The position numbers and the translations under genes are program-made. Below the pieces are notes generated by a model. It saw only the letters and a list, made by a program, of their open reading frames with translations, was not told where the DNA came from and did not search any database. From an uncultured Flavobacteriaceae bacterium (GTDB lineage: Bacteria > Bacteroidota > Bacteroidia > NS11-12g > UBA955): a DNA stretch of 64,000 nucleotides. Positions 2,012 to 45,565 of the stretch are shown piece after piece. How positions within the stretch are numbered: the stretch's first letter is position 1; every line of letters begins with the position of its first letter. Location: assembly GCA_964626685.1 (NCBI GenBank), contig CAZVJY010000001.1, forward strand, positions 7,683-71,682. Reading direction: 5' to 3'.

Positions 2012-2088
2012 TGGTCGGGATGACAAGATTCGAACTTGCGACCCCTTGCACCCCATGCAAGTGCGCTACCGGGCTGCGCTACATCCCG
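2012..2088 (-). tRNA. tRNA-Pro (anticodon GGG)
   Basis: The reverse complement folds as a cloverleaf: acceptor CGGGATG/CATCCCG, D-arm GCGC-AGCCCGGTA-GCGC, anticodon arm CTTGC-AUGGGGU-GCAAG (positions 34-36 = GGG), T-arm GCAAG-TTCGAAT-CTTGT, and an encoded 3' ACCA. Confidence 0.75.
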
Positions 2089-5356: not shown

Positions 5357-6625
5357 ATGAAACGAAAATCTTTCCTCACCGCAGCAGCACTTATGGCAGC
5401 TGCAGGCAGCAAGGCGGGCATCCGGGATGTATTTTCAGTGATACCCGCTGCCACCGACGACGAACAATACTGGTCGGCCCTACGGGCCTCGCTGTTTCCC
5501 ATTGAAAACGGCCGGATTTTTCTGAATAACGGCACCATGGGGATTACCCCATATCCTGTGCTTTCTGCCCTGCAAAACGGGTTTGAAAATGCCGCCACCA
5601 AAGGCGCCTACCCCGGGCATACAGACGATTTGCAAAAAGCCATTGCCGAACTAATTGGCTGTGATTTTGAAGAAATTGCCATTACCAAAAATGTGAGTGA
5701 AGGCATCAACCACGCTTGCTGGGGCATTCCCATGAGCAAAGGTGATGAAGTGCTGATGACAACCCACGAACATGCCGGTGGCTGCATCGCCTGGCTTCAC
5801 CGGGCTAATGTGGATGGCATTGTCATCAAAACCTTTCCGCTAGGCAAAACCGCCGATGAAACGCTGGCCAACCTGGAAAAAGCCATTACCAAGAAAACCC
5901 GGGTGATTGCCGTGCCTCATATTCCCTGCACCATAGGGCAAATTTTGCCGGTGAAGGAAATCTGTGCGCTGGCCAAAAGCCGCAATATTGTTACCGCCAT
6001 AGACGGGGCCCACCCGCTGGGTATGATCCGCTTCAATGTGCACGAAATAGACTGCGATTACTACAGCGGCTGCCTGCACAAATGGGCCCTGGGGCCATTG
6101 GGGATGGGCTTTTTCTATGTGCGAAAGGATATGCTCGCAAAAACCCGCTGCACCCATGTGGCGGCCTATTCCAGCAACGAATTCAATATGGCTGCCAATC
6201 CCCCTACGGGCGGCAAACTGGTGGACACAGCCCACCGTTTTTACTACGGCACCTTCTGCGGGCCCATGTATGAGGCCGGTTTGGAGGCGTTGAAGCTCTA
6301 CAAAAAAATCGGGCCGGAACGCATAGAAAACCGGGTGCGTAGCCTGGCTAACTATCTGCAGGAATCGCTGATGGCACTGGGCGATAAAATCACCATGCTC
6401 ACCCCCACGGAAGCCAAAAGCCGCGGTGCACAGGTGGCATTTCGCATCAACAATGGCAACCCCAAGGCGAGTTCGGAGTTCGTGACTGGACTGTACAGCA
6501 AAAAAATCACGCTGCGCTATGTTGGAGAAAACAACGTGGACTGCGTTCGTGTGAGCACCCACTACTACAACAGCCGCGAGGAGATTGACACGCTGGTTTC
6601 CGAAGTTAAAAAAGCATTGGGATAA
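5357..6625 (+). CDS. PLP-dependent aminotransferase class V (cysteine desulfurase / isopenicillin-N-epimerase-like) with a Tat/Sec-like N-terminus
   Basis: Class-V fold motifs are present (ITKNVSEGIN, HKWALGPLGMGF). The start was set at MKRKSFLTAAALMAAAGS (KRKSFL resembles a Tat motif) rather than the upstream ATG that overlaps anmK. Confidence 0.7.
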   Translation: MKRKSFLTAAALMAAAGSKAGIRDVFSVIPAATDDEQYWSALRASLFPIENGRIFLNNGTMGITPYPVLSALQNGFENAATKGAYPGHTDDLQKAIAELIGCDFEEIAITKNVSEGINHACWGIPMSKGDEVLMTTHEHAGGCIAWLHRANVDGIVIKTFPLGKTADETLANLEKAITKKTRVIAVPHIPCTIGQILPVKEICALAKSRNIVTAIDGAHPLGMIRFNVHEIDCDYYSGCLHKWALGPLGMGFFYVRKDMLAKTRCTHVAAYSSNEFNMAANPPTGGKLVDTAHRFYYGTFCGPMYEAGLEALKLYKKIGPERIENRVRSLANYLQESLMALGDKITMLTPTEAKSRGAQVAFRINNGNPKASSEFVTGLYSKKITLRYVGENNVDCVRVSTHYYNSREEIDTLVSEVKKALG

Positions 6626-7597
6626 GTGCTTACACAGGAAGCTGAAAACATCATCCGGCAGTGGCGTTCAGGGCAAACTGAATTCCCTGTGAGCAGCAGC
6701 GGAACCACCGGCGAACCGGGCTTGTTTCTGCTGAAACGCAACCTCATTGAACTGAGCTGCAGCATCACTGGCGATGCACTGTCCGTGAACGCTGAAGACC
6801 GCATCCATTGCTGTTTGCCCTTAACCAAAGTAGGCGGACTGATGCAGCTGTTTCGTTCTGAAGTCTGGGGCGTGCCAACAGACGTTGCAGAACCTGCAGC
6901 AAATCCATTGCTGAATTACGAAGGGACCGCCACTATCATATCCCTAACACCCATGCAGCTTTCGCATATCTGGGCCCATGAAAGCAGCCGCAATGCTTTA
7001 TTGAAATTCAGGATTGTGCTGCTGGGCGGGGCAGGTATAGCTGCAGCACTGGAAAAAGAAATTTCGGCACTCAAAAAACCCCTGTTTTTGCATACCTATG
7101 GCATGACCGAAACATACAGCCACGTAGCCTTGCGCAGTATAGACGAACCGGGTTTCCGGTTTTTGCTTCCGACCACAGCAACCCTCAGCGAAAATGGCTG
7201 TCTGCAGTTCAGCAATGCGATTACGGAAAATCGTGTATTAAAAACGAACGATGTTGTGGTTTTTGCAAAAGACGGTTCGTTTTCCATAACCGGACGTGCC
7301 GACAACATCATCAATTCCGGAGGCGTAAAAATCGCGGCAGAAGTAGTGGAAGCCCTTATACAAAAGCATTCCGGATTGACAGAAGGTACTTTTTTCTGTG
7401 CGGGTGTAGCCGATGAAATACTGGGAGAAAAGCTTGTTTTGGTCATACAAAAGGGCATTTCACCCCCCGATTTGCAAAAAATACCATTTGAACCCTCCTA
7501 CCTGAGGCCGAAAGCCATTCTAACTGCAAAACAGTTTTTATTTACGGAAACGGATAAAATTAAGCGCAAAGAAACGCTGGCGCTTATTTATAAATAA
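6626..7597 (+). CDS. Short ANL-superfamily AMP-binding enzyme, possibly o-succinylbenzoate-CoA ligase-like
   Basis: Contains the SSGTTGEPG adenylation motif, TYGMTETYS, and a C-terminal SGGVKIAAEVVE segment. At only 323 aa it resembles the compact MenE-type ligases. Confidence 0.55.
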   Translation: MLTQEAENIIRQWRSGQTEFPVSSSGTTGEPGLFLLKRNLIELSCSITGDALSVNAEDRIHCCLPLTKVGGLMQLFRSEVWGVPTDVAEPAANPLLNYEGTATIISLTPMQLSHIWAHESSRNALLKFRIVLLGGAGIAAALEKEISALKKPLFLHTYGMTETYSHVALRSIDEPGFRFLLPTTATLSENGCLQFSNAITENRVLKTNDVVVFAKDGSFSITGRADNIINSGGVKIAAEVVEALIQKHSGLTEGTFFCAGVADEILGEKLVLVIQKGISPPDLQKIPFEPSYLRPKAILTAKQFLFTETDKIKRKETLALIYK

Positions 7598-8489
7598 CGG
7601 GTGAGACCCGGTAACCGAGGCGCCTGAAGCTCGCTACCAGTCCATCCTCCCGCATGAGGTGTGCGGCACCAACGGCCACAAAACAGCGTTCTTTTTCAAG
7701 CAATGTCTCCAGCTTTTTAACCCACATACTGTTTCTCTCTTCCAGCAACTGCCTGTTCCAGGCCAGCTCTTCCGCATCGCCGGTAACGGCTAAATCCACA
7801 ATTTTGGAAATGCTGTCTGTAGCCTGCTTTTCATAGTATTCGGGCAACTTTAAACTGCGGCTTACATACACCTGCATGGCGCTGTCTTCCTCGCCATTCA
7901 GCAGGCGCCGCAAAGATCGAAACTGCAGGGAAAGCGAGGGCTTTACAAACATCAATTCGAACTGGCTTTCGGCAGTCTCCAAATAATCGCGGGCAAACCC
8001 GTTTTTGAAGGCATAATCGTCAATTCCCTGATCCATGGGAAGGGTATTGTCCTGCCCAAATTCTTTATATACATCGCCATACAACTTTATCACCGCCACA
8101 GACTCTGCCAGGGCTGGCTTAAAATTTTCATACACAGAAGCGCTCACGGGTGGATCTCCCTTTTGCAGGAGGCTGTCCAATCTGCGCCACTGTCTACGGG
8201 TTAAACTGTCGGAAAGCTTTATCCCTTCGGGCATGGCGGCATAGCGAAACATGGTAAACATGGCTCCGCGATCACTCATCTCGGCCTCTGTGATAACCCG
8301 GGCGCATTTCTTCAGGCTGTCCAGCGGAGCCGGATGCTTTTCAAAATAACTGAAACCTGCCAGGTGCATGGTTCCGAAGAGAAAAGACGATTTCTGCGTA
8401 ACCGGATGGGTTACGCGCCAAAGCAGCTGCGCGTTGACAGTATCGGCAAACCAGGCAATACAGAACAAGGCGGCCAGTACCTTCTTCAT
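7584..8489 (-). CDS. TraB/GumN family protein with a signal peptide
   Basis: MKKVLAALFCIAWFADTVNAQLLWRVTHPVTQKSSFLFGTMHLA matches the N-terminal signature of GumN/TraB family proteins. Confidence 0.65.
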   Translation of the reverse strand: MKKVLAALFCIAWFADTVNAQLLWRVTHPVTQKSSFLFGTMHLAGFSYFEKHPAPLDSLKKCARVITEAEMSDRGAMFTMFRYAAMPEGIKLSDSLTRRQWRRLDSLLQKGDPPVSASVYENFKPALAESVAVIKLYGDVYKEFGQDNTLPMDQGIDDYAFKNGFARDYLETAESQFELMFVKPSLSLQFRSLRRLLNGEEDSAMQVYVSRSLKLPEYYEKQATDSISKIVDLAVTGDAEELAWNRQLLEERNSMWVKKLETLLEKERCFVAVGAAHLMREDGLVASFRRLGYRVSPVIYK

Positions 8490-16329: not shown

Positions 16330-18342
16330 TTATTGCCTGCTTCGGGCATAAAAGCGGTGCATAGCCCAAACGTGTGGTAAACTCAGGCAAGCCAAGAAAA
16401 CAAAGAAAACTGAAATCCAATGATTATTTAACCATGGCAATACACCTTTATAAACAAGCAAAAACAACAACATGAGCAACAGCAACGCACCCATTGTGAA
16501 TGGAAGTGCCTTACGAAACAAGGTTATACCTGCTGCCCCCATCCCTTTTTGCAAATGCGACCAACCGTTCAGGCTGTGCTGACCTATAAAATACAGCCCA
16601 AAAGCAGAAAGCAAGGGCAACTGTATGCCTATTACGAGCATTAGCAGACTCCAAATAACATTAGGCTTTTTCTCAAACAATGCCCAAATAAGTGTTGCCA
16701 AAATCAATACATATACTAAATTCCCTACAGGAATAGTCCCAGCAATAGCCACGCCCATTCCTTCAATCACAGCCATTGCTTCCACGGGGTGCGAAAACAG
16801 GATGATGCCAAGTATACCCGTCCCCCATAAAAACGACTTCAGGTGGCGGTATTGGCTAATTTGCCACTCCTGAATATCCGACTGTCCGAAATGAAAAGCG
16901 GAATACCCTAGAAACAAAGCCATTGCAATTACAGGCTGCAGCCACCAAAGCAGGAGATACAGCAACATAATTCCCAGGTATTTTGCAATAAATACTGGTT
17001 CAGGTCTTCCCTCTACCCTCCGCGTCTCCAGTAAATAATCCAGTGCGCCATGGGGAATTCCTACAATAAACAGCCCTACCGAAAGCAAAGCCCACTGCAG
17101 TGGAACAAAAACAGCAGGAAACAAGGCATAAGCAAACCACAGCAACAGAGACAGCAACGTTAGCATGATAGGCTTTGAAATGGCTGGCGGATTGTATCTG
17201 AGATCTTGTCTAAGAGCACCTAAAAAAGGGCGAAACGGCAAGCTCAGCAGGATACCCGCATCCTGAAAAAAGGAGGTTTTCTCATCCAGAAACTGAAGGA
17301 TTCGCGGGGTGCTGTTTCTTCTGAATAATTGCTGGAATATAGGCTTACCCCTGCTTGGGCTTGTAGCGAGAATCCAAAGTAGCAGGCGATCATAGAATTT
17401 GAAGCGCACAGCATTAAAGTCAGTAGTAAAAAACTGTTTGTCCTTTAACTGTGTGGTTATTTCAACGGCCTGCCTGTGCATGTTTTTAAACGCATATCCT
17501 GTTCCGGGCTTAATCGCGCCTGCCCTGCTTCCCAGTCGGACCACCCCTTGCAATTCCTTGACTTCAAGCAGAGCAGAACACATGGGAATGCAACCGGTCT
17601 CTGTTTCCAGAATCTGTGCATTTCCAAAATGCTGCTGTATATAATTCTCCAGCACCGGCGCAGCTTCCTGTTCGGTTATCTTATTTACCCCAAAACGGGT
17701 AAGCTCCACGAGCGCTTTTCTTTCAGATAAGGGAAGCACATACATAAACTGGGTGGCACCCTGTTGTTCAACACCAAAATCCATCATATCCATGGAATCA
17801 GTATTCTCAATGGGGTGCTCAGGTTCAATCATGTATCCGATAAATGATTGAAACAGGCTGCTTTCATTGGGTTTTGGAGCCGAAAAACCGGCAGGCCTGC
17901 TATCGAATACACGGGATGCTATATAGGAGCCGATACCGGTAAACACTACCACACCCGAATCGTCCGTGGCAATGGATGTAACCGCGGCTTTGACCAGCTC
18001 TATGCCATTGCGCGCGGCCAGGGATTGCATGGCATCCTGCATTTGCATCCCTGATATGTAATGGTACTGAAGGGGTTTAAGCGGTGTTTCAGCGCCTCTG
18101 TCGATACGCAGATGATTCCATGTTTTTTGAATTAGCCCTTGACAATCCTGCACAATATCGTCTTCGGGATTTGCCCAGAAACAAAAAGTTTTGTGGCTCA
18201 ATGATTCGAAATCAGTATCCACAAGCACCACTTTCTTTCCGGCGAGTAAACCTGCCTTTTCCATCCGCATAAGCAGCAGTGTGGCAGAAGCACCGGCACC
18301 GGCGAAGAGATAATCACAGTTTATGTGGCTTTTTTTCATCAT
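16330..18342 (-). CDS. Fusion protein: lycopene beta-cyclase (CrtY family, N-terminal ~380 aa) plus a Brp/Blh-family beta-carotene 15,15'-dioxygenase membrane domain (C-terminal ~290 aa)
   Basis: The N-terminus DYLFAGAGASATLLLMRMEKAG is the FAD-binding fold of CrtY, and FMYVLPLSERKALVELTRFG resembles the CrtY FVYxLPLS region. The C-terminal half has more than 7 TM helices with conserved His/Asp (GIPHGALDYLLE, HFGQSD, HPVEA) as in Blh. It lies 65 bp downstream of the rhodopsin gene on the same strand. Confidence 0.7.
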   Translation of the reverse strand: MMKKSHINCDYLFAGAGASATLLLMRMEKAGLLAGKKVVLVDTDFESLSHKTFCFWANPEDDIVQDCQGLIQKTWNHLRIDRGAETPLKPLQYHYISGMQMQDAMQSLAARNGIELVKAAVTSIATDDSGVVVFTGIGSYIASRVFDSRPAGFSAPKPNESSLFQSFIGYMIEPEHPIENTDSMDMMDFGVEQQGATQFMYVLPLSERKALVELTRFGVNKITEQEAAPVLENYIQQHFGNAQILETETGCIPMCSALLEVKELQGVVRLGSRAGAIKPGTGYAFKNMHRQAVEITTQLKDKQFFTTDFNAVRFKFYDRLLLWILATSPSRGKPIFQQLFRRNSTPRILQFLDEKTSFFQDAGILLSLPFRPFLGALRQDLRYNPPAISKPIMLTLLSLLLWFAYALFPAVFVPLQWALLSVGLFIVGIPHGALDYLLETRRVEGRPEPVFIAKYLGIMLLYLLLWWLQPVIAMALFLGYSAFHFGQSDIQEWQISQYRHLKSFLWGTGILGIILFSHPVEAMAVIEGMGVAIAGTIPVGNLVYVLILATLIWALFEKKPNVIWSLLMLVIGIQLPLLSAFGLYFIGQHSLNGWSHLQKGMGAAGITLFRKALPFTMGALLLLMLLFLLVYKGVLPWLNNHWISVFFVFLACLSLPHVWAMHRFYARSRQ

Positions 18343-18407
18343 TTTGAGCTTAAAAAAAGGGGTTCATGATTGCATCAGAACCCCTTTTTCGTAATGAGTG
18401 TATTGAA

Positions 18408-19133
18408 TTAGTCTTCGCTTCTGCTCAGGGCATATACAACCAGACCAAATCCGATTTTGTTAACGGCATCACCAATGTTGTAGATGATGTCCATGTTCAG
18501 GTTCCAGTTCTTGCAGAACTCATACCACTGACCATCGGCAGTACCTACCAGGTAACCCAAGGGATAAATACCCCATCCGATAACAACAAATTTCAACAAA
18601 GAATCAATGGCTTTCTGCACAGCAGGGCTGCTGGCTTTGGACAGCTGGGCAACTTCGCCTTTCCATACCATCCAAACAATCCAGAAATAAGCCAGACCTG
18701 AAACCAGACCCCAGAAGGCAGCCTGATTGCGGGCAACTGCTTCACCCCAGTAGCCAGTAACCAGCATGATTACAGAGGCGAGGATGAGTTTCCACAACAG
18801 ACCTACTTTGGCACCCGCCTTTTTAGTAATGAGGTAGAATTCTACGCACATCAAAGGCACAGTCAGCAACCAGTCCACATAGCGAAAGAATACGGGAGAT
18901 TCTCCACCGGTTTCGAGGTTGTAGCCACGCATGTAGTAGTAGTGCACAGCTGCAATGAAGGTAATAATACCGGAAACAAGAACAGAAGTTCTCCAGTCTT
19001 TTGAGGTGTTACCCAATTCAAAGAAGAAGAACACAGAAGCGGCCATCATGGCCATGGTGCCGATGAAAAACGTAAATGCTACGTAGTTGTCGGCTGCGAT
19101 GACGTTAGACGTCAATAGGTTGAAATGTTCCAT
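18408..19133 (-). CDS. Proteorhodopsin-type microbial rhodopsin, predicted light-driven proton pump (DTE motif)
   Basis: Seven TM helices. Helix C RYVDWLLTVPLMCVEFYLI carries the D/T/E proton acceptor and donor positions, and helix G IIYNIGDAVNKIGFGLVVY carries the retinal Schiff-base Lys and counter-ion Asp. Met at the PR-105 tuning position suggests green absorption as in flavobacterial PRs. The start was set at MEHFNLL. Confidence 0.85.
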   Translation of the reverse strand: MEHFNLLTSNVIAADNYVAFTFFIGTMAMMAASVFFFFELGNTSKDWRTSVLVSGIITFIAAVHYYYMRGYNLETGGESPVFFRYVDWLLTVPLMCVEFYLITKKAGAKVGLLWKLILASVIMLVTGYWGEAVARNQAAFWGLVSGLAYFWIVWMVWKGEVAQLSKASSPAVQKAIDSLLKFVVIGWGIYPLGYLVGTADGQWYEFCKNWNLNMDIIYNIGDAVNKIGFGLVVYALSRSED

Positions 19134-19658
19134 ACGTGTATGTATTTTAATGATGTACACAAATGAACATAGAAAAGATAATTGTGTTTGCCTTGTGCAG
19201 ATTTTTTTTGTATATTACGAACCATCTTCCACAATTATCAACACAAAAAAGAGCACAATAAATTCAGATAATCGAATCCGATAAGAGCATTATAATTGAC
19301 TTTCAATGACTTTTACCTCGGAAATAAAACCCAAAACAGGGCGGATGATTGTTTTTCAAAATGTGGATAACTATACTTGACAAAAAGTCGAATTTATCAT
19401 GTTCATGCATCAGAAAGTAGTGATAATGATATTTTTGAATTTCAGTAAAAAACAAAGAAAATGGCGATGTAAAAACCACCATTGCAATCACACAGGCACC
19501 TATTTTACTAAAAAAATTGATATGCTTTTAACAACACACACGACATAAAGCAATGAAAAGACCCTGTGCTACACATTCTGAAACTTGGCTCCAAGACGCT
19601 ATCAGCACCGGTTAAAACTAAAAACAAGGTTACGCGGATTAAAATATAAATTCGCAGC

Positions 19659-22600
19659 ATGGGGTTTAGCTGCCAAAATCAAGAGTGCTCAATGGCCATC
19701 GCAAAGGCCGTGTTCCCTTCGGAGATAAAAAATTGTCCTGTTTGCAGTCTGCCATTGTTCGATCCTACAGCCTTGAATGATGAAGAAATTCAATTAATAC
19801 GGGAATTGCCCTATGTCATTGCCTACCCCCTGAGACAAGCCCTGCAGGAAAAGCACGCATGGACAAAAATAAACCTGCTGAAGGATACATTTCTTAATTA
19901 TCTGAAATACACTGGCCTGATCACGGCTTCTGAATTTTTTAACAGCCAGTTTAAGGACAGAAATATGGTTGCTCTTTTTCACAAAACCATTGCAGAGCCC
20001 TCCTTTGGCTCTTGGAATGAGTTTATCAGAGAAACCATCAAGTACCTAAAAGAAGAACAACACACCTTTTTCGACACAGGAATTTTCAACCACTACGAAC
20101 GGGTTGAAACCGGCAAAAGAAGAAAATTATTCAATGGAGAAATTGAATACTCTGATATCAACGGCGATATTCAATTGAAGAGACAGGAGGCCACCGGCAT
20201 TGGAATGCTCATCAACTTCCGCAACAGATACCTGGGCCATGGGCTAACACTGAATGAAATTACATCTCAAAAAATCTGGCAAGAATACTATCCAATCTTT
20301 AAATACCTGCTAACAGACTTAATCCAATCAAAACCCTTTCCAATGTTCAAACATGAGCACGGAGAAACATACCTGCTAAAGTCAGCTGAAATTCACATTG
20401 TGGAGAAAGGACAGCAACAATCCGCAAGGGTATGGATTGAAAACCAAAATAATGAACAGTTTGATATTCTGCCTTTTTATATCGTCCCAGGCGAAGTGTC
20501 TGTTTCTAAAGAAGACAAGGAACAAATATTCATTTACGAATCCCACACCGGTAAAACCATCAAATTTTTCAGCCCGGAAGGCACCGAAAAACAGACCTCA
20601 GGCAAGGTGCTGGAAAGGCTTAACCTGCTACTCAGGGAAAAACGGAATGAAACAAGCTATTCTTCCGGAGAATTTGACAGGAACACCTTTATCAATCGTA
20701 TTGCAGCCGAAAACAAGCTGGTTATTGAAACCCTCATCAATGAAAAGAAAGTACTTCCGGAGGTTTACGTAAATCGCAAAGACCTGGAGGCAAAACTCCA
20801 TGAATGGATTGGTGCCCAAGCAAGCATCTTTTTTATAGCGGCAGAGGCTGGTAGCGGAAAAACCAATCTGCTTGCTGAAATCCAACGGCAATACAACAAA
20901 CTTGACCTGCCCTGCCTGCTAATCAGGGCTGGCAGAATGGAAAAACAAACACTGACCGAGCAAATAGCCTTTGTTTTAAACATCAACCCAACGACCGGAC
21001 TGGAAGAATATCAGGCTATAGCCGGCAGCCAGGACAAACCCACTGTTGTTTTGATTGATGGACTCAATGAGGCAATTAATGCAGAAGAAGTGTGGGAGGA
21101 AATCCTTGCTATAAGCAAAATTTTTAATGGCGGGACTTTAAAATTTGTAGTCACCAGCCGGGCCAATACAGGGGCCGATATTCATCGTTTTAAATTAAAT
21201 GAAAGTGACCAGGAATTGCTGTTTGGCGATAATCCGGAAGGGGAAACCGGCCTTCATGCCTACATCAATTGGTTAACCGCCATGAACATGGTTGAATTGC
21301 AAGAAGCCTGGAATATTTACACCAAGAAAAACAAAAACAAATTCAACCCACGATTTACCTTTTCGGATATTGCAGATTTTGACCGTTCCATTTACAATCA
21401 AATCAACAACCCTCTGGTATTGAGGCTTTTCCTTGAAACCTACCATCAAAAAACGCTGCCAAAAAACAGCAACAAATACCTCAACATCTGGCGTGACTGG
21501 CTTGAATCCTTTTCTGCAAAAGAACGTGTATTCATGGAGCTGCTGGTAGAAGCTGTATGGGAAAAAGGAGAAAATGAACTGTTACTGGACGATTTGATCA
21601 ATTCGGATAGGCTGAAACCTTACTTTAACTCAGATGTTCAAAATGATCCATATCCCCGTCTAAAAAATCTGGGATGGCTGAGCCGTTACACCAAAGACTT
21701 GCACGGCTATGTTTCATTCACAGTTGAAGGTGCGTTGCTTTACATGCTGGGCGAGTTCCTTCGAAAACAGAAACCTGCCATAACTCTTAATAGTGCGCTG
21801 ACCTTACTGAGTAAAGGAACAAAACTTAAACGGTTTGCATTGGAAGCCATGCTTTGCGAACAGGCTTTGGATGACAATTTTACCCTAACAACGGAACTCA
21901 TTGATGCCGGCAACAATCATCTGGAAGTTTGCATTAAACCTTCACTGCTTTACTTAAAAACCTTCGGGGTGTCAAAAACCCTGAATAAATTACTGCAGCA
22001 AGGAACAGCAAACGACTGGAAAGTAATGCTTGAAATAGACAGCAACCTCTCAAAATTGCGGCTGCATACCTTGCGGAAAGAATTCCTCACTGAATTAATG
22101 AAGCAAAATGAATTCAGGCATATAGAATCTGTATGGCTCGGGTTAATTGCAATCATCACCTATTTTGACAAAAAACAGGCTGTTCAATACCTAGCCGAAA
22201 TTCACAAATCACAAGCCCTTATTGAAAGCGATCACAACCTGTTAAGTTTACTTGGAAAGTGTGTTGCAAAATATGGCAAATACGACCAGGCACTTGTATT
22301 TTATCACAAAAGTCTGGACATCAAAATGAAACTCCTGGGCGAAAACGACCCCTCGGTATCTGGATTGCTGAATAATATTGCCTTAGCACTTGTAAAAAAA
22401 GAAGAACTGGACAAAGCCTTGGAATTCTATCAGAAAAGCGTTGATTTAAAGTTAAAACGACTTGGAGGAATGCATCCTTCTCTGTCTGCTTCCTACAGCA
22501 ACATTGGTGCGGTGTGGCGAAAAAAAGGAGAATATGAGAAAGCCCTTTCCTATTACGAAAAGAGCATTTATATTAAGTTAAAAGTACTTGGCGAAGACAA

Positions 22601-23177
22601 CAATTCATTGGCACCCGTATACAATAATGTGGGTTTTTTATGGGCCGACCAAGGAAAATACGACCTGGCACTTGAATGGTACTCAAAAAGCCTGAAAATT
22701 AAAATAAAGAACTTTGGTACAGACCATTTTTCACTTGCCTCATCCTACAGAAACATAGGCTCTGCATGGCGAAAAAAAGGAGAGTATGACAAAGCTGTAG
22801 AATTTTACGAAAAGAGCCTTGACCTTAAAAAGAAATTCCTTGGCAACGACCATACAGATGTAGCAGATATCTTGTATTCTCTCGGAGATTGTTATCAGGC
22901 AACAAACCAGCATCCAAAAGCGATTGACCATTTTTCGGAAGCTTTTGAATTGCAAAAAAAGGGAAAACACCTATTGCGTATTGGAGAATGCCATGAATCA
23001 CTAAAAAATGCAAAAGAAGCGCTCAAATTTTATATTCTGGCAGCAGAGACATTTAAGAATGATCAGGAATTTACAATCAGTCACAATCTGACGCGAAGTT
23101 CAATTGAGAAAGCCATGCAGCTGTCCAAAGAACTGCAAAGTGAAAATGAATTGCCTGTTTGGATGCTCCAAAATTGA
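19659..23177 (+). CDS. STAND NTPase: N-terminal zinc ribbon plus unknown domain, a NACHT-type P-loop NTPase, and C-terminal TPR repeats
   Basis: CQNQEC...CPVC zinc ribbon. Walker A AAEAGSGKTNLL and the NACHT-type Walker B VVLIDGLNEA. The C-terminal ~350 aa are kinesin-light-chain-like TPR repeats (ALVFYHKSLDIKMKLLG, ALEFYQKSVDLKLKRLG, ALSYYEKSIYIKLKVLG, ALEWYSKSLKIKIKNFG, AVEFYEKSLDLKKKFLG). The gene is AT-rich. Confidence 0.75.
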   Translation: MGFSCQNQECSMAIAKAVFPSEIKNCPVCSLPLFDPTALNDEEIQLIRELPYVIAYPLRQALQEKHAWTKINLLKDTFLNYLKYTGLITASEFFNSQFKDRNMVALFHKTIAEPSFGSWNEFIRETIKYLKEEQHTFFDTGIFNHYERVETGKRRKLFNGEIEYSDINGDIQLKRQEATGIGMLINFRNRYLGHGLTLNEITSQKIWQEYYPIFKYLLTDLIQSKPFPMFKHEHGETYLLKSAEIHIVEKGQQQSARVWIENQNNEQFDILPFYIVPGEVSVSKEDKEQIFIYESHTGKTIKFFSPEGTEKQTSGKVLERLNLLLREKRNETSYSSGEFDRNTFINRIAAENKLVIETLINEKKVLPEVYVNRKDLEAKLHEWIGAQASIFFIAAEAGSGKTNLLAEIQRQYNKLDLPCLLIRAGRMEKQTLTEQIAFVLNINPTTGLEEYQAIAGSQDKPTVVLIDGLNEAINAEEVWEEILAISKIFNGGTLKFVVTSRANTGADIHRFKLNESDQELLFGDNPEGETGLHAYINWLTAMNMVELQEAWNIYTKKNKNKFNPRFTFSDIADFDRSIYNQINNPLVLRLFLETYHQKTLPKNSNKYLNIWRDWLESFSAKERVFMELLVEAVWEKGENELLLDDLINSDRLKPYFNSDVQNDPYPRLKNLGWLSRYTKDLHGYVSFTVEGALLYMLGEFLRKQKPAITLNSALTLLSKGTKLKRFALEAMLCEQALDDNFTLTTELIDAGNNHLEVCIKPSLLYLKTFGVSKTLNKLLQQGTANDWKVMLEIDSNLSKLRLHTLRKEFLTELMKQNEFRHIESVWLGLIAIITYFDKKQAVQYLAEIHKSQALIESDHNLLSLLGKCVAKYGKYDQALVFYHKSLDIKMKLLGENDPSVSGLLNNIALALVKKEELDKALEFYQKSVDLKLKRLGGMHPSLSASYSNIGAVWRKKGEYEKALSYYEKSIYIKLKVLGEDNNSLAPVYNNVGFLWADQGKYDLALEWYSKSLKIKIKNFGTDHFSLASSYRNIGSAWRKKGEYDKAVEFYEKSLDLKKKFLGNDHTDVADILYSLGDCYQATNQHPKAIDHFSEAFELQKKGKHLLRIGECHESLKNAKEALKFYILAAETFKNDQEFTISHNLTRSSIEKAMQLSKELQSENELPVWMLQN

Positions 23178-39024: not shown

Positions 39025-42000
39025 TTAGTTGGCACGTATCAGGTTCACTGATCCGGATACATACTTCTGTTCTTTGCCCTTGAAACGATAGGTCAATTGA
39101 TAGAAGTAAGTGCCTTCAGGAACCTCAGGGCCATCGTTATTCACTTGACCATTCCAGCCAATCTTGGGATTTTCGGTGCGGAACACACGCTCACCCCAGC
39201 GGTTGAAGATTTTAAGTTCGAAGAGATCCTGGCCCTGGATTGGCACTCGGTAGGTATCATTTTTACCGTCGGCTTTTCCGGGAGTAAATACGTTAGCCAG
39301 ATAGATGAACAAATCAACTACAACCGGCTTACAAATTGTATCTACACATCCTGAGGCATTTTTCGCAATCAGACACACCCAGTATTTACCGCTGCTGTCA
39401 TAAGAGTAGCAAACCTTCTTGTCGTTGCTGTTATTTTGCTCGAAGAAGTCTTTAGGCAGGGTGTTCTTGATATCGTTTGCGTGAGAGAAGCCCCAGCGCC
39501 ACTGCGTGCCATTTACATCCGTGCGGGTAAAGCAGAAGTCAGGCTTACCACTCGAATCTATATCAAAGTCCGCTTTTACGCTGTCAACCAGGAAGGTATC
39601 AATCACAGCTGGCGTGGGACAGTAAGGTTGAGGATGGGTAATTCCGTAATCTGCCAAATGTGTAACCCGATATTGGCCTGGCACAGTAAACTGGCGTTTG
39701 TAATTTTTCGTAGTCACCGTTACAGTATCAACCTTACCTGTGCTCAGGTTTTCAAACCGCCATTTGTAGGACTTAAAGATGGTATCCGAATTGTCAACAA
39801 ATTCGTTTGAATCATTAGGACAAATAGCAGGCTTAACAATAAATCCTCTAACCGTGTCGCGCTTAATTACATTCACGATAAAAGCCTTTTGACCACCGGC
39901 GGTATCAGGGAAAGTAGCGGGGCAGAAACGTTTCAGGTTTGGCGGAATGAACAAGGTATCATACTGCTCAAGGAATACGAAGTATTTACCAGGCTTATTG
40001 TAAACATGGGTAATAAATGTATCCTTTTTGTTGGCAACAGCACCATCACCAAACAACCAGTTCCAGTCAGCACCATTGGTAGCCGAATCGGTCATATTTT
40101 TGAATCTAACAGGGTTTCCTACGCAGATGGTGATCTCATTTCCTGCAAAATCTGCATATTCAAATCTGGGACGGGGACCTGGAATTTTAATCCAGCGCTT
40201 GATGGTATCTGCGCAACCCTGGTCAGTTGTGGCAAACAGGGTTATCTGGAACCAGCCATTTCTTGTGTACTTGTGCGCAAGACTTGGTGGCAACAGCTCG
40301 TCAGAAGATTTTGAACGGGAGAAATAGTTTGTTTTTCCATCACCCCAGTCAATAAAATACTCACGAATAAAATCACACTCAATCGGAGCCGGACCGTTAC
40401 AGTTCTTGATAGCCCAGTTACATGGATCAAAAAGTTTAGTACTGTCAAACAATTCTATAATTGAGTTACAGGATGGAACTGCAAGATTCAAGGCAAAGTT
40501 TACATCCAGACGGCTTATGAATAGGCGACGAGTCAATGTATCACGACAACCAGTTGAGTCACCCACAGCCACACGGAATGTATAAACACCGGAGTCATTC
40601 TTGTAGTAAATGGTCTTGGGATCAGTAGGACCGCCACCGAGCTGGAACCAAGGAGAAGTCAAAGTACCTACCCCTACTGCGCCGTAAGGAGCGCCACCGA
40701 AACGGGTAGCTGCATTATTGGGATCATCATCCTTTTTGCTCCAATCCCAGCGAGTAAATGACTCACGGTTAGGCACACCGGCAAAGATATCTGCCTGACG
40801 CTTTGCATCACGCCAGTAATCAAATGGATCCCAGGTTCCTACTTGCGGATCGGGGTGGAAATAACGAAGGTCCAGCCTTGCACTCAGGTTGGTTGCCTGA
40901 TCCTGACATATAGTTGAGTCAGGTAATTCAATAAAGGCGGCAAAACCTACTATCACAGGAAGCGCGAGGAATTCATCACACTTACCGTTTGCAGATGTCA
41001 TACTCAATTCAACAGTATGGAATCCAGCCCAGGGTGAGCGGAAAGTGTATGCCTTCAGTTTATTACCGCCAACAACAGCAGAATCCAAAGGACGGATATT
41101 GGTGTCTCTGGGGTGAATAATTTTCTTAAAGTTGGTATCAGGTCTAAGGTAGAAGCGAATGAAACGACCGAAACCATTGGTATCGATACAACCTTCAGCG
41201 CCGGTGGCAGGCTGACCGATGATCCCTTTGTTGTTCCAAATCATGCGGGTAATCTGGGCTGCATCGAGAGCAAATGGATCAAAGCCACGTGATTCAACAC
41301 GTTCCTTAATTCTATCCCAGACAGCAGAAACATCGGCTGCGGTGTCCCATTTGCCAATAATGGCTGTAACAATGGTATCAGGGGTTTTATCCAATTTCCC
41401 GCCATGTTTTCCGTCATCCCACGCAACTGCACGGTCATTTCTGGAGTCATCCTGCCATTCCATTGAACAAGGAACGGGCTCAGGTCGGGTTTCGAAACGG
41501 CTCTGAATAAGTATGTTGTAAATCTTATTACTGCTTGAATCTTTAAGACGAATACCTCTTTGATAATCTTCAACAATCTGGTAATTCCACTGCTTGCTGT
41601 ATGAAGGACTAGCATTGCCGGTACCAAACTGCCAGCGCAGGCTCTTCAAATCATCGGTCTTGGTCTTATTATTGGCTACTGGTCTAACCACCACGCGATC
41701 GTTCTTACAAATCTTGCGAACGCCGGCAGAATTAGGAGTAGGAGTAACAATCTCAAATGAAGGATCAATTACGGGGAAGCAGGCAAACTTATCGTAGTAC
41801 TGGGTATCAGCACACAAGGGAGGATCACCAACGGTTCCACCTTTGGCCACACCATTACCTACGATAATTCCTACCGTAATACAGCCATTGGGGTTACATA
41901 CCTCAGCTGCTGTATATTGCTTGGAGAACCTTGAAGGCGGGTTTGATGCTATCTGATAACCCATGTAAGGCATACCGGGAGGCCTGTTACCTGGTGTCAA

Positions 42001-44376
42001 ACCGGATGTCAGGGTAGTCCAGGTGGTGGGCTTGCAGAAAGTATCATAGTTGATGCCTACATAAGAGAAAGTACAACCCGGTTTTAGGTCACTCAAAATA
42101 AACGTGATACCGTACTGCTGGTTTTTACTGCCAAGACACTCGATCGCATCTTTCACCAGACCGGATCCTACCCCGCCGGCATTGGCATGAAGCATAGACA
42201 ACTGTTTGGTGGCTTCAGAAGTACACTTAAGCGGGTGGCAGGTATCGTAGTGCGTCAGTCTTACGTTGTTACACTGGGGAATTCTTGCATAGTAAAGCTC
42301 TCTCCAGCGCTTGTAATCCACTTTGTAATCCAGTCCTGCTGTTCCGGGGAAGGTACGTTTGATAAATCCAACGATTCTGGGATTTTCACCTTTCTTGGTG
42401 CGTATGCGCAGCAAGGGTGCCGGCAGGGTATCCTTTTTCAGGAAAACGGTAAACAGGAACCGGAATGAATCAGTTTTGCTTGTCAGTTTTATCACCTGTC
42501 TTGGTGCTAGACTTAAAGTTTTGGGACCTATGTGACGTGTAAACGGACCATTTTGGGGACCTACAAAAGCGGTATCACCAGCCTTTAGCTCCACATCTAC
42601 ATTGTTCGTAATAAAGCGTTCTGCCGGACCTTTAATCCCTTTTTCCCAGAGGAAGGTTTTTGTCTTGTTGGCAGCATATTTGGGCTGGTTCGCCAGAATA
42701 CTGTCAGCCATACTCTTGGGAACCACCAGCAAAGTATCTTCTATGATAAAGTTGGTGTCAGAAGGCCAAATATTGATACGCTTACAAAGCTTGCTGCTCT
42801 CGATAAAAATAGCATCCTCCATAGGCGCATTTTTAAAGTCGGATAGCATTACCAGATCCCAGCTCTTGTAGTAATGTGAGGGGAGCGAATCATGACTGTA
42901 TTGACAGTTAACATTTACGTTTTTGTTATTCAAACGGTCAGTGGTACATCTCGGAGCATAGTTGTCTCCAAAATTCCAAATTCTCACAGCGCATACTCGC
43001 TGACGGAACAAGGGATCAACAAAACCACGGGGCCTAACCCAAGTTTGGCTGTTGTCAAATACATGTCCGGGGTGATTGTTTCCTGGCCACTTTTTGAATG
43101 TACTGTCATCATTCCACATGTTTTTATCGTTGTGATAGAACTTGGAAAAGTTCTTAAAGTGAACCGTATCCTGTACATCTTTGGGACACTGGAAAACCTC
43201 AAACTCAGCAATGCGGTTAAACGGAATTTCAATAGTCGATTGAGGACCAATAATCATTATTGTATCGAATGCCCTTTTGGTTCTGGTTCTTCCACCACAT
43301 ACAATATCATAGGTAAATGATATTTGAAAAGGACCGAGCCCGCTGAAGGCATGCTCAGCAGAATAGGTTCGGTTGTTAAAGTTTAACGGACCTGTGGGGG
43401 GATCTCCGAAATTCCAGAGGAAACTGGATATACCTACCACAGGCTGAGGTACCAGGCTGAATTTAATATTGGGATCGGAAATACAGGTAGAATCTCTGTC
43501 AGCCACAATCTGATACTCCCCTTTAAGCACCTGCGCAGCCGCCTTCATCTCGAATGAATCAATACAACCATCGGTGGTTTCAATAATCATTTTGATATTG
43601 TAAACACCGGGAGACGTATACTTCTTCTGAATATTGGGGCCCCATTGGTTACTGGTTGTACCATCACCCCAAAACCAGGTGATTGTCTTTACCTTACTTT
43701 GGGCAATCCTAGAAATATTTCTGATTAGCGCTGTTACTGAGTCGCAGTCTACAGGCTTATTACTGGTAAACGCCGGACCGATTGCTTCACGCACTTTGGC
43801 TGCACAGCTGATGGTATCACTTGCCGCGCAACCATTGGCATCTGTATATTCCACATAGAGATCAAAACAACCTCCGCGTACATCCTTGATCGAGTAACAG
43901 AAAGGATTAATAGCACTGCTGTTCTGGAAAAACTGACCGTCACCCACAACATACTTGGCAGAACGAATGGGAGATCCATTGGGGTTCTTGGTTGAATCAC
44001 TGAAACAGAAAAGGTTGCCCCGGAAACACTGTTCGGGCTGGCTTATCAATTTTAAATTGGGCACAGGGCTTGTCTTGATGGTAAGCTGAATAATCGAAGT
44101 ACATCTTGAACCGTTGATGGTAGTAATGTACCGGATATTCTTAAGTCCTGGAGTTTTAAAGGCATAATTCAGGTTTCTGAGGCCTGAAGATGTATTTTCA
44201 CCATTAAAATCCCAGTCATGGGTTGTGCCTGTACTTGCTCCTGTAAAAGCGATAGGCGAACCAACGCATAATGCCCCACTGTACTGAATGGTGCACTGTG
44301 CCGTGGCATAGCTGCCTGCAAACAGCAGGGCAATAACCGGCACAATTTTTTTGAAGATGGCTGTATAACCTTTCAT
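39025..44376 (-). CDS. Very large secreted adhesin-like protein with PKD-like repeats and a T9SS type-B C-terminal domain (gliding-motility-associated CTD)
   Basis: The start was set at MKGYTAIFKKIVPVIALLFAGSYATAQ (signal peptide). The C-terminus ANVFTPGKADGKNDTYRVPIQG...YFYQLTY matches the type-B CTD consensus (FTPNGDGxND). It is about 1783 aa and Gly/Thr/Asp-rich. Confidence 0.7.
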   Translation of the reverse strand: MKGYTAIFKKIVPVIALLFAGSYATAQCTIQYSGALCVGSPIAFTGASTGTTHDWDFNGENTSSGLRNLNYAFKTPGLKNIRYITTINGSRCTSIIQLTIKTSPVPNLKLISQPEQCFRGNLFCFSDSTKNPNGSPIRSAKYVVGDGQFFQNSSAINPFCYSIKDVRGGCFDLYVEYTDANGCAASDTISCAAKVREAIGPAFTSNKPVDCDSVTALIRNISRIAQSKVKTITWFWGDGTTSNQWGPNIQKKYTSPGVYNIKMIIETTDGCIDSFEMKAAAQVLKGEYQIVADRDSTCISDPNIKFSLVPQPVVGISSFLWNFGDPPTGPLNFNNRTYSAEHAFSGLGPFQISFTYDIVCGGRTRTKRAFDTIMIIGPQSTIEIPFNRIAEFEVFQCPKDVQDTVHFKNFSKFYHNDKNMWNDDSTFKKWPGNNHPGHVFDNSQTWVRPRGFVDPLFRQRVCAVRIWNFGDNYAPRCTTDRLNNKNVNVNCQYSHDSLPSHYYKSWDLVMLSDFKNAPMEDAIFIESSKLCKRINIWPSDTNFIIEDTLLVVPKSMADSILANQPKYAANKTKTFLWEKGIKGPAERFITNNVDVELKAGDTAFVGPQNGPFTRHIGPKTLSLAPRQVIKLTSKTDSFRFLFTVFLKKDTLPAPLLRIRTKKGENPRIVGFIKRTFPGTAGLDYKVDYKRWRELYYARIPQCNNVRLTHYDTCHPLKCTSEATKQLSMLHANAGGVGSGLVKDAIECLGSKNQQYGITFILSDLKPGCTFSYVGINYDTFCKPTTWTTLTSGLTPGNRPPGMPYMGYQIASNPPSRFSKQYTAAEVCNPNGCITVGIIVGNGVAKGGTVGDPPLCADTQYYDKFACFPVIDPSFEIVTPTPNSAGVRKICKNDRVVVRPVANNKTKTDDLKSLRWQFGTGNASPSYSKQWNYQIVEDYQRGIRLKDSSSNKIYNILIQSRFETRPEPVPCSMEWQDDSRNDRAVAWDDGKHGGKLDKTPDTIVTAIIGKWDTAADVSAVWDRIKERVESRGFDPFALDAAQITRMIWNNKGIIGQPATGAEGCIDTNGFGRFIRFYLRPDTNFKKIIHPRDTNIRPLDSAVVGGNKLKAYTFRSPWAGFHTVELSMTSANGKCDEFLALPVIVGFAAFIELPDSTICQDQATNLSARLDLRYFHPDPQVGTWDPFDYWRDAKRQADIFAGVPNRESFTRWDWSKKDDDPNNAATRFGGAPYGAVGVGTLTSPWFQLGGGPTDPKTIYYKNDSGVYTFRVAVGDSTGCRDTLTRRLFISRLDVNFALNLAVPSCNSIIELFDSTKLFDPCNWAIKNCNGPAPIECDFIREYFIDWGDGKTNYFSRSKSSDELLPPSLAHKYTRNGWFQITLFATTDQGCADTIKRWIKIPGPRPRFEYADFAGNEITICVGNPVRFKNMTDSATNGADWNWLFGDGAVANKKDTFITHVYNKPGKYFVFLEQYDTLFIPPNLKRFCPATFPDTAGGQKAFIVNVIKRDTVRGFIVKPAICPNDSNEFVDNSDTIFKSYKWRFENLSTGKVDTVTVTTKNYKRQFTVPGQYRVTHLADYGITHPQPYCPTPAVIDTFLVDSVKADFDIDSSGKPDFCFTRTDVNGTQWRWGFSHANDIKNTLPKDFFEQNNSNDKKVCYSYDSSGKYWVCLIAKNASGCVDTICKPVVVDLFIYLANVFTPGKADGKNDTYRVPIQGQDLFELKIFNRWGERVFRTENPKIGWNGQVNNDGPEVPEGTYFYQLTYRFKGKEQKYVSGSVNLIRAN

Positions 44377-44515
44377 AATATTTGTTTTCCTTTTTTGGGA
44401 AGCCTCAAAAATATCGTTTTTGGAGGAATTTTCAACATTCACACCGATATTTTTTTGGTCATCTTTTTGTTTTATCGCATTCATCTGCATGGTAAAATTT
44501 TCTGTTAATATTCAT

Positions 44516-45565
44516 TTATCTGTTTAAAATCACGGACTTGGTATACGTTACAGATTGCTTTGCTGTAGCCGTTTTGTAGGTCACAAAAACCCTGTATGTG
44601 CCTGATGGACAATCATCTGAAGCACTTTTCCCGTTCCAGCGATGCGCAGGATTATTGCTCGTAAATACCTGTTTTCCATTTTTGTCCGTAACAATCATAT
44701 TGAACTGCACTGACTCCGGCAGGGTAATCACGAGTTCGTCATTTAACCCATCTCCATTGGGTGTAATTACATCGGGTATGCTGAGTCCTTTGTGTAGCTG
44801 TCGAGTTACAACCCTGTAAACACCTGAATCCATACAGCTCGCAGACCTAAATACCAGCACCTTAACTTCATATTCTGCATTCACATCGGCATACTGGTGC
44901 TGTACCGGATTACCGGTTCCTGTTTCACCATCACCGAAAAACCAGGAGCAATGCGATCCGGCAGGCACAACAGGAATACTGAAAGACCAGTTATTATCAC
45001 CACTGGCTTTTCCTGCCGCAACTTTCAAAAGCCTTCCACACAAAGGGATTGAGTTGACACTATGTTCCTCCACCAGAAGCGGACCAGCATTTTTTACCTG
45101 GTCTGCAGGTTGGATAGCCTGATCTCTACCGTCCGCTGATACTTCGGCAGAAACAAGATCTGATTGGGTTGTCATTTCGGACGGTTTGCTTTGTTCGTTG
45201 TTTGCCGGTTTTAACGGAATTGACTGCTGCACCTTTGCCTCTTCTCCTTGACTGATCTGCATATTTTGATTGGCAGCATCTCCTTTGGCAGGCAATTCAG
45301 CGGAAGGTGTTTTAGCAGTTTGCTCTACAACAGCCGGGGATTCCTGCTTTTCAGACGAAAAAACTGCAACCAGACCACCAACAAGAATACAACCCGAAAC
45401 AACCCAGGTCCACACAGATTTTACCACCACGGAAATAAGTCCGGTCGGGGCTGCGGCGGGCAAACCTGCAGAAACAGCCTCCCATACACCCGAAGGAGGC
45501 GTCAGTCCGCCATCTTTTAATCCGTTCCGGAACAATTCATCTATGGGATTTTGTTCGTTGGTCAT
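44516..45565 (-). CDS. Membrane-anchored protein with a T9SS type-B C-terminal domain, in the position of an anti-sigma factor
   Basis: A ~40-aa cytoplasmic N-terminus followed by the TM helix ISVVVKSVWTWVVSGCILVGGLVAVF. The C-terminus IPDVITPNGDGLNDELVI...GTYRVFVTY is a type-B CTD. The gene lies 3 bp downstream of an ECF sigma gene. Confidence 0.6.
   Translation of the reverse strand: MTNEQNPIDELFRNGLKDGGLTPPSGVWEAVSAGLPAAAPTGLISVVVKSVWTWVVSGCILVGGLVAVFSSEKQESPAVVEQTAKTPSAELPAKGDAANQNMQISQGEEAKVQQSIPLKPANNEQSKPSEMTTQSDLVSAEVSADGRDQAIQPADQVKNAGPLLVEEHSVNSIPLCGRLLKVAAGKASGDNNWSFSIPVVPAGSHCSWFFGDGETGTGNPVQHQYADVNAEYEVKVLVFRSASCMDSGVYRVVTRQLHKGLSIPDVITPNGDGLNDELVITLPESVQFNMIVTDKNGKQVFTSNNPAHRWNGKSASDDCPSGTYRVFVTYKTATAKQSVTYTKSVILNR

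Follow-up and report, generated by a model that had tools for sequence, protein, structure and literature searches.

A proteorhodopsin gene and a predicted single-gene lycopene cyclase-Brp/Blh fusion form a widespread two-gene cassette in freshwater Bacteroidota

Rhodopsin phototrophy requires a supply of retinal. In a stretch of 64,000 nucleotides from an uncultured Flavobacteriaceae bacterium (GenBank assembly GCA_964626685.1, contig CAZVJY010000001.1, positions 7,683 to 71,682 of the forward strand; hereafter the window), the gene of a proteorhodopsin (PR) is followed by a single open reading frame (ORF), in which a CrtY-type lycopene cyclase domain is joined to a Brp/Blh-type dioxygenase domain. 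We consider it probable that these two genes constitute a retinal photosystem typical of freshwater Bacteroidota, operating along the steps proposed in the Discussion. The cassette is an ordinary and widespread variant of a known system, and it differs from the familiar PR module in that crtY and blh are fused, only two genes are involved, both lie on the same strand and a terminator-like hairpin stands between them.

Results

Arrangement of the two genes

The original prediction, which had been made from the letters of the window, placed the fusion ORF 65 bp downstream of the opsin gene on the same strand. Both ORFs were recovered in precisely this arrangement, and both read on the minus strand, an orientation that had gone unmentioned. 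The features of the locus, given in positions of the window and in amino acids (aa) of the proteins, are the following.

19134..19242, minus strand: conserved opsin upstream block, likely promoter and short 5' untranslated region (UTR), with TTCATTTG lying ~27 nt ahead of the ATG
18408..19133, minus strand: proteorhodopsin gene, 241 aa plus stop, start ATG at 19133
18343..18407, minus strand: opsin-fusion spacer, exactly 65 bp, with the opsin upstream and the fusion downstream
18352..18390, minus strand: terminator-like hairpin within the spacer, GAAAAAGGGGTTCTGAT-GCA-ATCAtGAACCCCTTTTTTT
16330..18342, minus strand: CrtY-Blh fusion ORF, 670 aa, no internal stops
17221..18315, minus strand: CrtY-like lycopene cyclase domain of the flavin adenine dinucleotide (FAD) type, aa 10-374, Pfam Lycopene_cycl
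16342..17175, minus strand: Brp/Blh beta-carotene 15,15'-dioxygenase domain, polytopic membrane domain, aa ~390-667

The longest opsin ORF extends over 18408..19160 and begins with GTG; the ATG at 19133, which is taken as the start, agrees with the homologous gene calls, and tblastn alignments cover the relatives from residue 1. Forty-eight further window ORFs with a length of 150 aa or more were screened with Pfam, and none matched the crtE, crtB, crtI or crtZ families, which bears out the earlier statement that crtE, crtB and crtI are missing from the 64-kb window. Hence, lycopene would have to come from elsewhere in the genome.

Domain composition of the fusion protein

The N-terminal half of the fusion matches the Pfam family Lycopene_cycl (PF05834) with an E value of 1.8e-41 and 143 bits (gathering cutoff, GA, 23.4) over profile positions 1-376 of 380. 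Its dinucleotide-binding motif reads DYLFAGAGASA, and in an alignment of 97 sequences G15, G17 and A18 of this motif are invariant, as are the blocks FMYVLP...VELTRFG and KPGTGYAFKNM (KPxTGYAFKNM) and the further columns E213, T215, K278, P279, T281, G282 and Y283. An AlphaFold2 model of the fusion, computed with the same alignment (mean predicted local distance difference test score, pLDDT, 85.9; predicted template modelling score, pTM, 0.67), has an alpha/beta N-terminal half that reaches to about aa 385, followed by a C-terminal half that is entirely helical from aa 390. In a Foldseek comparison with the PDB, the modelled N-terminal half resembles FAD-dependent geranylgeranyl reductases as well as flavoenzymes of the para-hydroxybenzoate hydroxylase (PHBH) class (E ~1e-11 to 1e-12), and this predicted flavoprotein fold is of the class expected for a CrtY-type cyclase. 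A profile search of the PDB returned no solved structural relative for either half.

The C-terminal half matches the Pfam family BCD (PF15461) at aa 423-662 with an E value of 2.9e-34 and 119 bits (GA 28), the match extending from position 2 to position 264 of a profile of 267, and it exceeds the NCBIfam cutoff for the Brp/Blh family (TIGR03753) with 136.4 vs 95.25 bits; it is thus a Brp/Blh domain and no generic membrane anchor. The profile searches of the two halves, which had been proposed along with the original prediction, find Lycopene_cycl in one and BCD in the other, and the single ORF is a CrtY-Blh fusion from end to end. About eight hydrophobic segments are present in the C-terminal half, in which the histidines 431, 484, 518, 589 and 657 are invariant throughout the 97 sequences. 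According to a 2026 preprint, a structure of Blh does not exist, and the histidines 21, 78, 188 and 256 of Blh 66A03 are proposed as the iron site (bioRxiv 10.64898/2026.08.06.743266). From order and spacing only, we infer that H431, H484, H589 and H657 may correspond to these four residues. Taken together, the domains and residues of the fusion suggest, for its two halves, the enzymatic activities of a lycopene cyclase and of a beta-carotene-cleaving dioxygenase.

Occurrence of the fusion

A search of 5.8 billion proteins at a threshold of E<=1e-10 yielded 1219 homologs of the fusion; each of the 120 listed has a length of about 670 aa and carries PF05834 together with PF15461, at identities of 44-98%. 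In addition, a query restricted to the junction (aa 300-470) was run on a set of 50%-identity clusters comprising 1.84 billion representatives. Of the 150 best representatives, about 120 match this query continuously over its whole length and are 650-700 aa in length. For stand-alone cyclases with a length of about 400 aa, the match is confined to the first 80 residues of the query, and these proteins end exactly where the Blh half starts. Since the stand-alone cyclases end at the junction, the two halves are joined end to end, essentially without a linker. Seventeen diverse homologs align across the junction free of gaps, the bridging segment FLDEKT..D..L..LP..PFL.A is itself highly conserved, and the alignment of 97 sequences features more than 110 invariant columns that are spread across both halves.

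A species-level scan, in which each GTDB species was represented by one genome, revealed 464 relatives of the fusion, the best 80 of which underlie all locus counts given here. These 80 are all full length, share 38-78% identity and stem without exception from metagenome-assembled genomes (MAGs), whose isolate names mostly refer to lakes, reservoirs and rivers and whose commonest labels are Chitinophagaceae, Ferruginibacter, Flavobacteriales, Crocinitomicaceae, Saprospiraceae and similar. Several MAG records of this Bacteroidota gene bear implausible organism labels, namely Streptomyces griseus, Rhizobium sp. and Sphingomonadales. A phage-borne cassette was also considered and rejected, as a scan of viral contigs yielded no fusion.

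In 68 of the 80 loci the proteorhodopsin gene adjoins the fusion on the same strand, lying upstream as in the window in 47 cases and downstream in 21. The remaining 12 loci comprise one with a divergent opsin, six in which an adjacent opsin is truly absent and five whose flanks are too short to tell, so that the same-strand orientation holds for 68 of the 69 loci with an adjacent opsin. Two further observations concern the linkage and length of the fusion: in a subgroup labelled Saprospirales/Chitinophagales (L037 and L047, fusion at 6001-8001; proteins P0060 and P0063), the fusion is predicted to be extended at its N-terminus by about 45 aa, amounting to 717 aa in total, and rhodopsin is absent within 6 kb on either side. 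The fusion is therefore not always physically linked to the opsin.

Clustering of the flanking ORFs of the 80 loci revealed no carotenoid genes as recurrent neighbours. Beyond the opsin, the only repeated finds were a photolyase gene (12 of the 80 loci) and a gene resembling flavin reductases (10 loci); because the other neighbours vary, the opsin-fusion cassette represents the conserved unit. The genes around the cassette of L084, a distant carrier, bear no relation to those of the window. An exact look-up of the window fusion protein in the assembly index gave no hit; synteny with the window is seen in a close relative (L081), reached via a 78%-identical protein (P0002).

The original prediction had regarded the arrangement as uncommon. 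This did not hold for this habitat and phylum, as the layout prevails across a large number of freshwater Bacteroidota (464 relatives; ~120 clusters, nearly all of them MAGs of freshwater Bacteroidota; 68 of 80 loci with an adjoining opsin). The claim that it is unlike the canonical layouts, on the other hand, stands, for in marine Flavobacteriia blh runs divergently to PR (PMC5887021) and crtY and blh are separate in proteobacterial operons. Public annotation of proteins P0002-P0150 names one half of the fusion only, either as 'lycopene beta-cyclase' (JGI) or as 'beta-carotene 15,15'-dioxygenase, Brp/Blh family', with 'hypothetical protein' as the other designation in use at NCBI.

Family and key residues of the opsin

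The opsin matches the Pfam family Bac_rhodopsin (PF01036) with an E value of 4.2e-40 and 138 bits against a GA of 24.6. Its closest solved structures are 9jov and 9jou, which were deposited as 'Proteorhodopsin' (E ~5e-83; 9jov 4.6e-83), and structures of green-absorbing proteorhodopsin follow as the next match with an E value of 1e-49. The motif RYVDWLLTVPLMCVEFYLI contains D87, T91, M95 and E98, while K226 is contained in DAVNK. In HMMER alignments with green PR (7b03, 8cnk, 2l6x), the former four residues fall on D97, T101, L105 and E108, and D222, N225 and K226 fall on D227, N230 and K231, K226 being the Schiff-base lysine; moreover, H64 aligns on His75, which is thus kept. The DTE motif, the Schiff-base lysine and the methionine at the tuning position, as they had been read from the sequence, are hence matched column for column by the green PR structures, and the alignment to PR references that had been suggested as a check leaves motif and tuning residue unchanged. 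Leucine or methionine at position 105 denotes the green type, and DTE is the motif of a proton pump (PMC8386455). Given the DTE residues aligned to green PR and the methionine at the tuning site, it is a well-supported prediction that the window opsin is a green-absorbing outward proton pump, with respect to both pumping direction and colour.

A terminator-like hairpin between opsin and fusion

The new detail of this analysis is a terminator-like hairpin in the spacer, an equivalent of which is present in nearly all opsin-first relatives. In the window, the hairpin is followed by seven T, and this T-run stops 9 nt before the ATG of the fusion. The RNA has a minimum free energy (MFE) of -21.7 kcal/mol (z = -4.2), and only one of 200 shuffled sequences folds as well. 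The hairpin was found by reading and folding the spacer, and a simple promoter/terminator pattern scan missed it on account of a one-base bulge. A GC-rich stem with a T-run occupies the spacer in essentially all 47 opsin-first loci, where the distance from the T-run to the fusion ATG amounts to 5-40 nt. The stems differ among the relatives (GGGGTTC.., GGGTTCTTC.., GGCGAATC.., GGGGGCT..); what is conserved is the structure, not the sequence. In these loci an A-run often precedes the hairpin, so that the A-run and T-run flanks together give the shape of a bidirectional terminator. After the fusion gene no terminator is apparent, and the fold at this site is unremarkable (z -1.4).

The two genes also differ in codon usage: with an effective number of codons (Nc) of 42.7 the opsin gene ranks second in bias among 21 window genes, while the fusion gene, with an Nc of 56.4, ranks last. 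Hairpin and codon bias together suggest that opsin is made in abundance and that the enzyme remains scarce owing to leaky read-through. The original prediction had implied simple co-transcription, which is complicated by the strong, conserved hairpin in the spacer.

Upstream region and unequal divergence of the two genes

The block upstream of the opsin gene is 80-84% identical to those of three related loci (L001, L006 and L008), and further upstream the identity drops below 65%. The pattern CGTAATATACAAAAAAAAT..GCAAACA..TTCATTTGTGTACATCATTAAAATACATACACGT is common to the window and to eight related loci (L001-L008), and the block as a whole is presumably a promoter region.

Between the window and the same eight loci the opsin is 94-99% identical at the protein level and 88-94% at the DNA level, with 0.30-0.52 synonymous (dS) and 0.005-0.035 nonsynonymous (dN) substitutions per site. 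For the fusion, the same eight pairs show 56-78% protein and 65-76% DNA identity, a dS that ranges from 1.3 to saturated and a dN of 0.15-0.40. High identity sets in about 90 bp upstream of the opsin ATG, persists through the coding sequence and ends with the stop codon. Either recombination or sweeps between lineages that involve the opsin only, or strong codon-level constraint on a highly expressed opsin, could underlie this gap in divergence.

A further observation concerns the opsin leaders of more distant relatives, in whose proteorhodopsin 5' UTR Rfam recognizes the DUF805 RNA (RF03081), a candidate cis-regulatory element, with 57-75 bits against a GA of 51.1 at the following positions.

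L010, 5122-5187: DUF805 RNA
L013, 8073-8140: DUF805 RNA
L015, 8080-8148: DUF805 RNA
L022, 5122-5187: DUF805 RNA
L029, 8075-8144: DUF805 RNA
L046, 8143-8208: DUF805 RNA
L053, 8096-8164: DUF805 RNA
L077, 5004-5071: DUF805 RNA

Of 62 related opsin leaders, 48 contain the core of this RNA, which lies about 22 nt ahead of the ATG. The first hairpin of the RNA exhibits compensatory changes as judged by eye. The window and its nearest clade lack the element: Rfam found no match in the window opsin leader, even at E<=1, and the DUF805 RNA of the relatives is therefore not part of the window. A literature search for 'DUF805' in combination with 'rhodopsin' found no paper.

Other genes near the cassette and in the window

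The photolyase/cryptochrome (PF00875 and PF03441) and flavin-reductase-like (PF01613) genes are located 2-5 kb downstream of fusion-first cassettes (L054, L056, L059, L064 and others), and both have a connection to light or flavins. CrtY-type cyclases are reported to need reduced FAD, and a neighbouring flavin reductase could be its source. One fusion protein (P0041) was found in two contexts, a phage-type integrase following on one contig (L085, 11409-12626) and glyceraldehyde-3-phosphate dehydrogenase (GAPDH) on another (L084, 12553-13551), which may point to rearrangement, or to a mobile element, beside the cassette in that lineage. Divergently upstream of the window opsin, positions 19659-23177 of the plus strand encode a protein of 1172 aa that is syntenic in L081 and combines a P-loop/NPHP3-like NTPase region with C-terminal TPR arrays, an architecture of STAND/NACHT type. 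Features elsewhere in the window are listed below; the tRNA genes are its only Rfam matches at gathering level, and the PKD-domain proteins are consistent with a Bacteroidota origin of the window.

2015-2088, minus strand: tRNA gene
37049-37121, minus strand: tRNA gene
39025-44490, minus strand: large PKD-domain protein ending in a CHU_C type IX secretion signal
44516-45565, minus strand: large PKD-domain protein ending in a CHU_C type IX secretion signal

Discussion

In the proposed mechanism, the product of the first gene would be a green-absorbing proteorhodopsin that pumps protons outward, while the polypeptide encoded by the second gene would perform the last two steps of chromophore synthesis. 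Its cytoplasmic, FAD-binding CrtY-type domain would convert lycopene, supplied by crtE, crtB and crtI located elsewhere in the genome, to beta-carotene. This cyclase would be joined, almost without a linker, to the first transmembrane helix of the Brp/Blh non-haem-iron dioxygenase, which would cut beta-carotene at the 15,15' bond to give two molecules of all-trans-retinal within the membrane where the opsin sits. As the cyclase would be tethered to the membrane enzyme, beta-carotene is probably committed to retinal by substrate channelling. Expression of the two genes is probably unequal by design: the opsin gene would benefit from its putative conserved promoter region and strong codon bias, the hairpin would halt the majority of transcripts behind the opsin, and translation of the fusion would most likely occur from read-through transcripts only. 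The outcome, much opsin and little enzyme, would fit a stoichiometric need for the opsin and a catalytic need for the enzyme.

Several points weigh against parts of this reading, and three alternatives were considered. There is hardly any chance that the single ORF is an artefact in which a frameshift or an assembly error joined separate crtY and blh genes. Although the window is one sequence only and crtY and blh stay separate in canonical PR gene clusters (PMC5887021), hundreds of independent assemblies, derived from different lakes and by different pipelines, encode a protein of about 670 aa at 38-98% identity that is collinear across the junction, and the fusion is therefore real and no sequencing or assembly artefact. 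Moreover, the junction segment is kept at the protein level, and between genomes the dN of the fusion lies far below its dS, which means that purifying selection acts on the whole ORF. More weight has to be given to the identity of the N-terminal half, which misses the NCBIfam lycopene-cyclase cutoff TIGR01790 (84.3 vs 209.5 bits) and falls widely short of the CrtY equivalog TIGR01789 (54.5 vs 215.2) and the CrtL equivalog NF045687 (26 vs 500); nor does the sequence separate bicyclic beta-carotene from monocyclic gamma-carotene as its likely product. This half might thus be a monocyclase, another FAD-dependent carotenoid-modifying activity or a silent carotenoid-binding or delivery module for Blh, in which case beta-carotene would come from another crtY in the genome. 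Many non-cyclase flavoproteins have the same fold, and Blh accepts other carotenoids according to the preprint mentioned above (bioRxiv 10.64898/2026.08.06.743266). We nonetheless regard such a function as quite improbable, for the Pfam profile is covered over nearly its full length, the invariant glycines and the FMYVLP...ELT and KPxTGY blocks argue for a working active site, and in view of the constant pairing with Blh and opsin the simplest reading is a step that feeds Blh. Furthermore, stand-alone Bacteroidota cyclases of about 400 aa that belong to the same subfamily score equally low in NCBIfam (76-96 bits), one of which, a protein of 410 aa (P0263), is 32% identical to the fusion across aa 2-379. 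Because these relatives fall short of the cutoffs by the same margin, the N-terminal half is filed here as a putative divergent, Bacteroidota-type subfamily within the Pfam lycopene-cyclase family and not as an equivalog of proteobacterial CrtY.

The third alternative holds that opsin and fusion are independent transcription units, the hairpin being a full terminator, the fusion having its own promoter and the adjacency reflecting co-inheritance only. The intergenic terminator could indeed mean that a promoter of the fusion overlaps the 3' end of the opsin gene, and since the gene order is reversed in 21 loci, read-through from the opsin is not universal. In these reversed loci, spacers of 125-430 bp accommodate a separate opsin leader, the DUF805 RNA, six loci carry the fusion without an adjacent opsin, and in the window a strong hairpin with its run of seven T separates the genes. 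However, the short distance between the T-run and the ATG, both in the window and in the relatives, leaves no room for a promoter and a UTR, and nearly all adjacent pairs share one strand. Independent transcription therefore appears unlikely to us, and read-through past the hairpin is the reading retained here for opsin-first loci such as the window.

The marine gammaproteobacterial operon, which Sabehi in 2005 and Martinez in 2007 are said to have described, reportedly has the order PR-crtE-crtI-crtB-crtY-blh. The window resembles it in that a DTE proton-pumping type of opsin, a CrtY-type cyclase and Blh are encoded side by side on one strand. In that operon, however, crtY and blh are individual genes, and the pathway is complete from geranylgeranyl diphosphate (GGPP) onward, whereas the window encodes one CrtY-Blh polypeptide, lacks crtE, crtB and crtI within its 64 kb and features a terminator hairpin between the opsin and the enzyme gene. 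The PR-blh pair of marine and freshwater Flavobacteriia (Dokdonia, Polaribacter, Flavobacterium sp. TH167) belongs to the same phylum and shares a closely related opsin in which Met105 is typical, a retinal-forming gene beside the opsin and crt genes located elsewhere. In contrast to the window, where blh is fused to crtY and lies on the strand of the opsin, a stand-alone blh opposite PR is found there; for Flavobacterium sp. TH167 and 'other PR-containing Bacteroidetes' a separate blh divergent from PR with crtY elsewhere was described (PMC5887021).

At the protein level, the C-terminal half resembles the characterised Blh 66A03 (Q4PNI0), likewise a polytopic helical membrane protein of the Brp/Blh family, and its invariant histidines match the proposed iron ligands in order and spacing. 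Blh 66A03 is, however, a stand-alone protein of about 275 aa, whereas the window domain forms the C-terminal half of a 670-aa protein, and the position of His-192 of 66A03 is taken by G593 in the window, with a near-invariant histidine at 596 instead. The nearest precedent for a lycopene cyclase-Blh fusion is eukaryotic, namely the CrtI-CrtB-CrtYc/d-Blh protein of Thecamonas trahens, which was tied to the supply of retinal for rhodopsin (PMC10016063). The thraustochytrid CrtIBY and Thecamonas fusions are eukaryotic, contain an unrelated membrane cyclase of the heterodimeric CrtYc/d type and include CrtI and CrtB; the window fusion, by contrast, is bacterial and comprises just two domains, the cyclase being of the FAD-type CrtY family (PF05834). 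In the full-text literature searched, which leaves most subscription journals outside its coverage, a bacterial CrtY-Blh fusion was not described, and only eukaryotic CrtIBY(-Blh) and artificial fusions turned up as related cases.

These findings do not overturn known biology, since the parts and the pathway are already known and the fusion family has already been sequenced, though it is apparently uncharacterised. As annotation pipelines label one half of the fusion and never both, surveys will miscount these genomes if they treat crtY and blh as separate entries or go by product name. A natural cyclase-dioxygenase fusion would moreover give optogenetic or retinoid-producing strains a single gene that leads from lycopene to retinal. 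Artificial Blh fusions have so far performed poorly (PMC12226859). In addition, the conserved terminator provides a testable model for the production of abundant opsin alongside a scarce cleavage enzyme. If the predicted function applies, freshwater Bacteroidota, a large and ecologically important group, would meet their need for retinal with one bifunctional gene beside the opsin.

A more far-reaching interpretation is put forward tentatively, namely that CrtY-Blh is a dedicated, channelling 'retinal synthase' within a minimal photosystem of two genes whose sole demand on the host is lycopene, in which the structurally conserved leaky terminator sets a high ratio of opsin to enzyme and the opsin is exchanged or swept between lineages independently of the fusion. 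The latter element derives from the opsin dS of 0.3-0.5 next to a saturated fusion. If true, rhodopsin phototrophy in lakes would follow a design principle not described so far, and the fusion would at the same time be a ready-made single-gene retinal part for engineered hosts.

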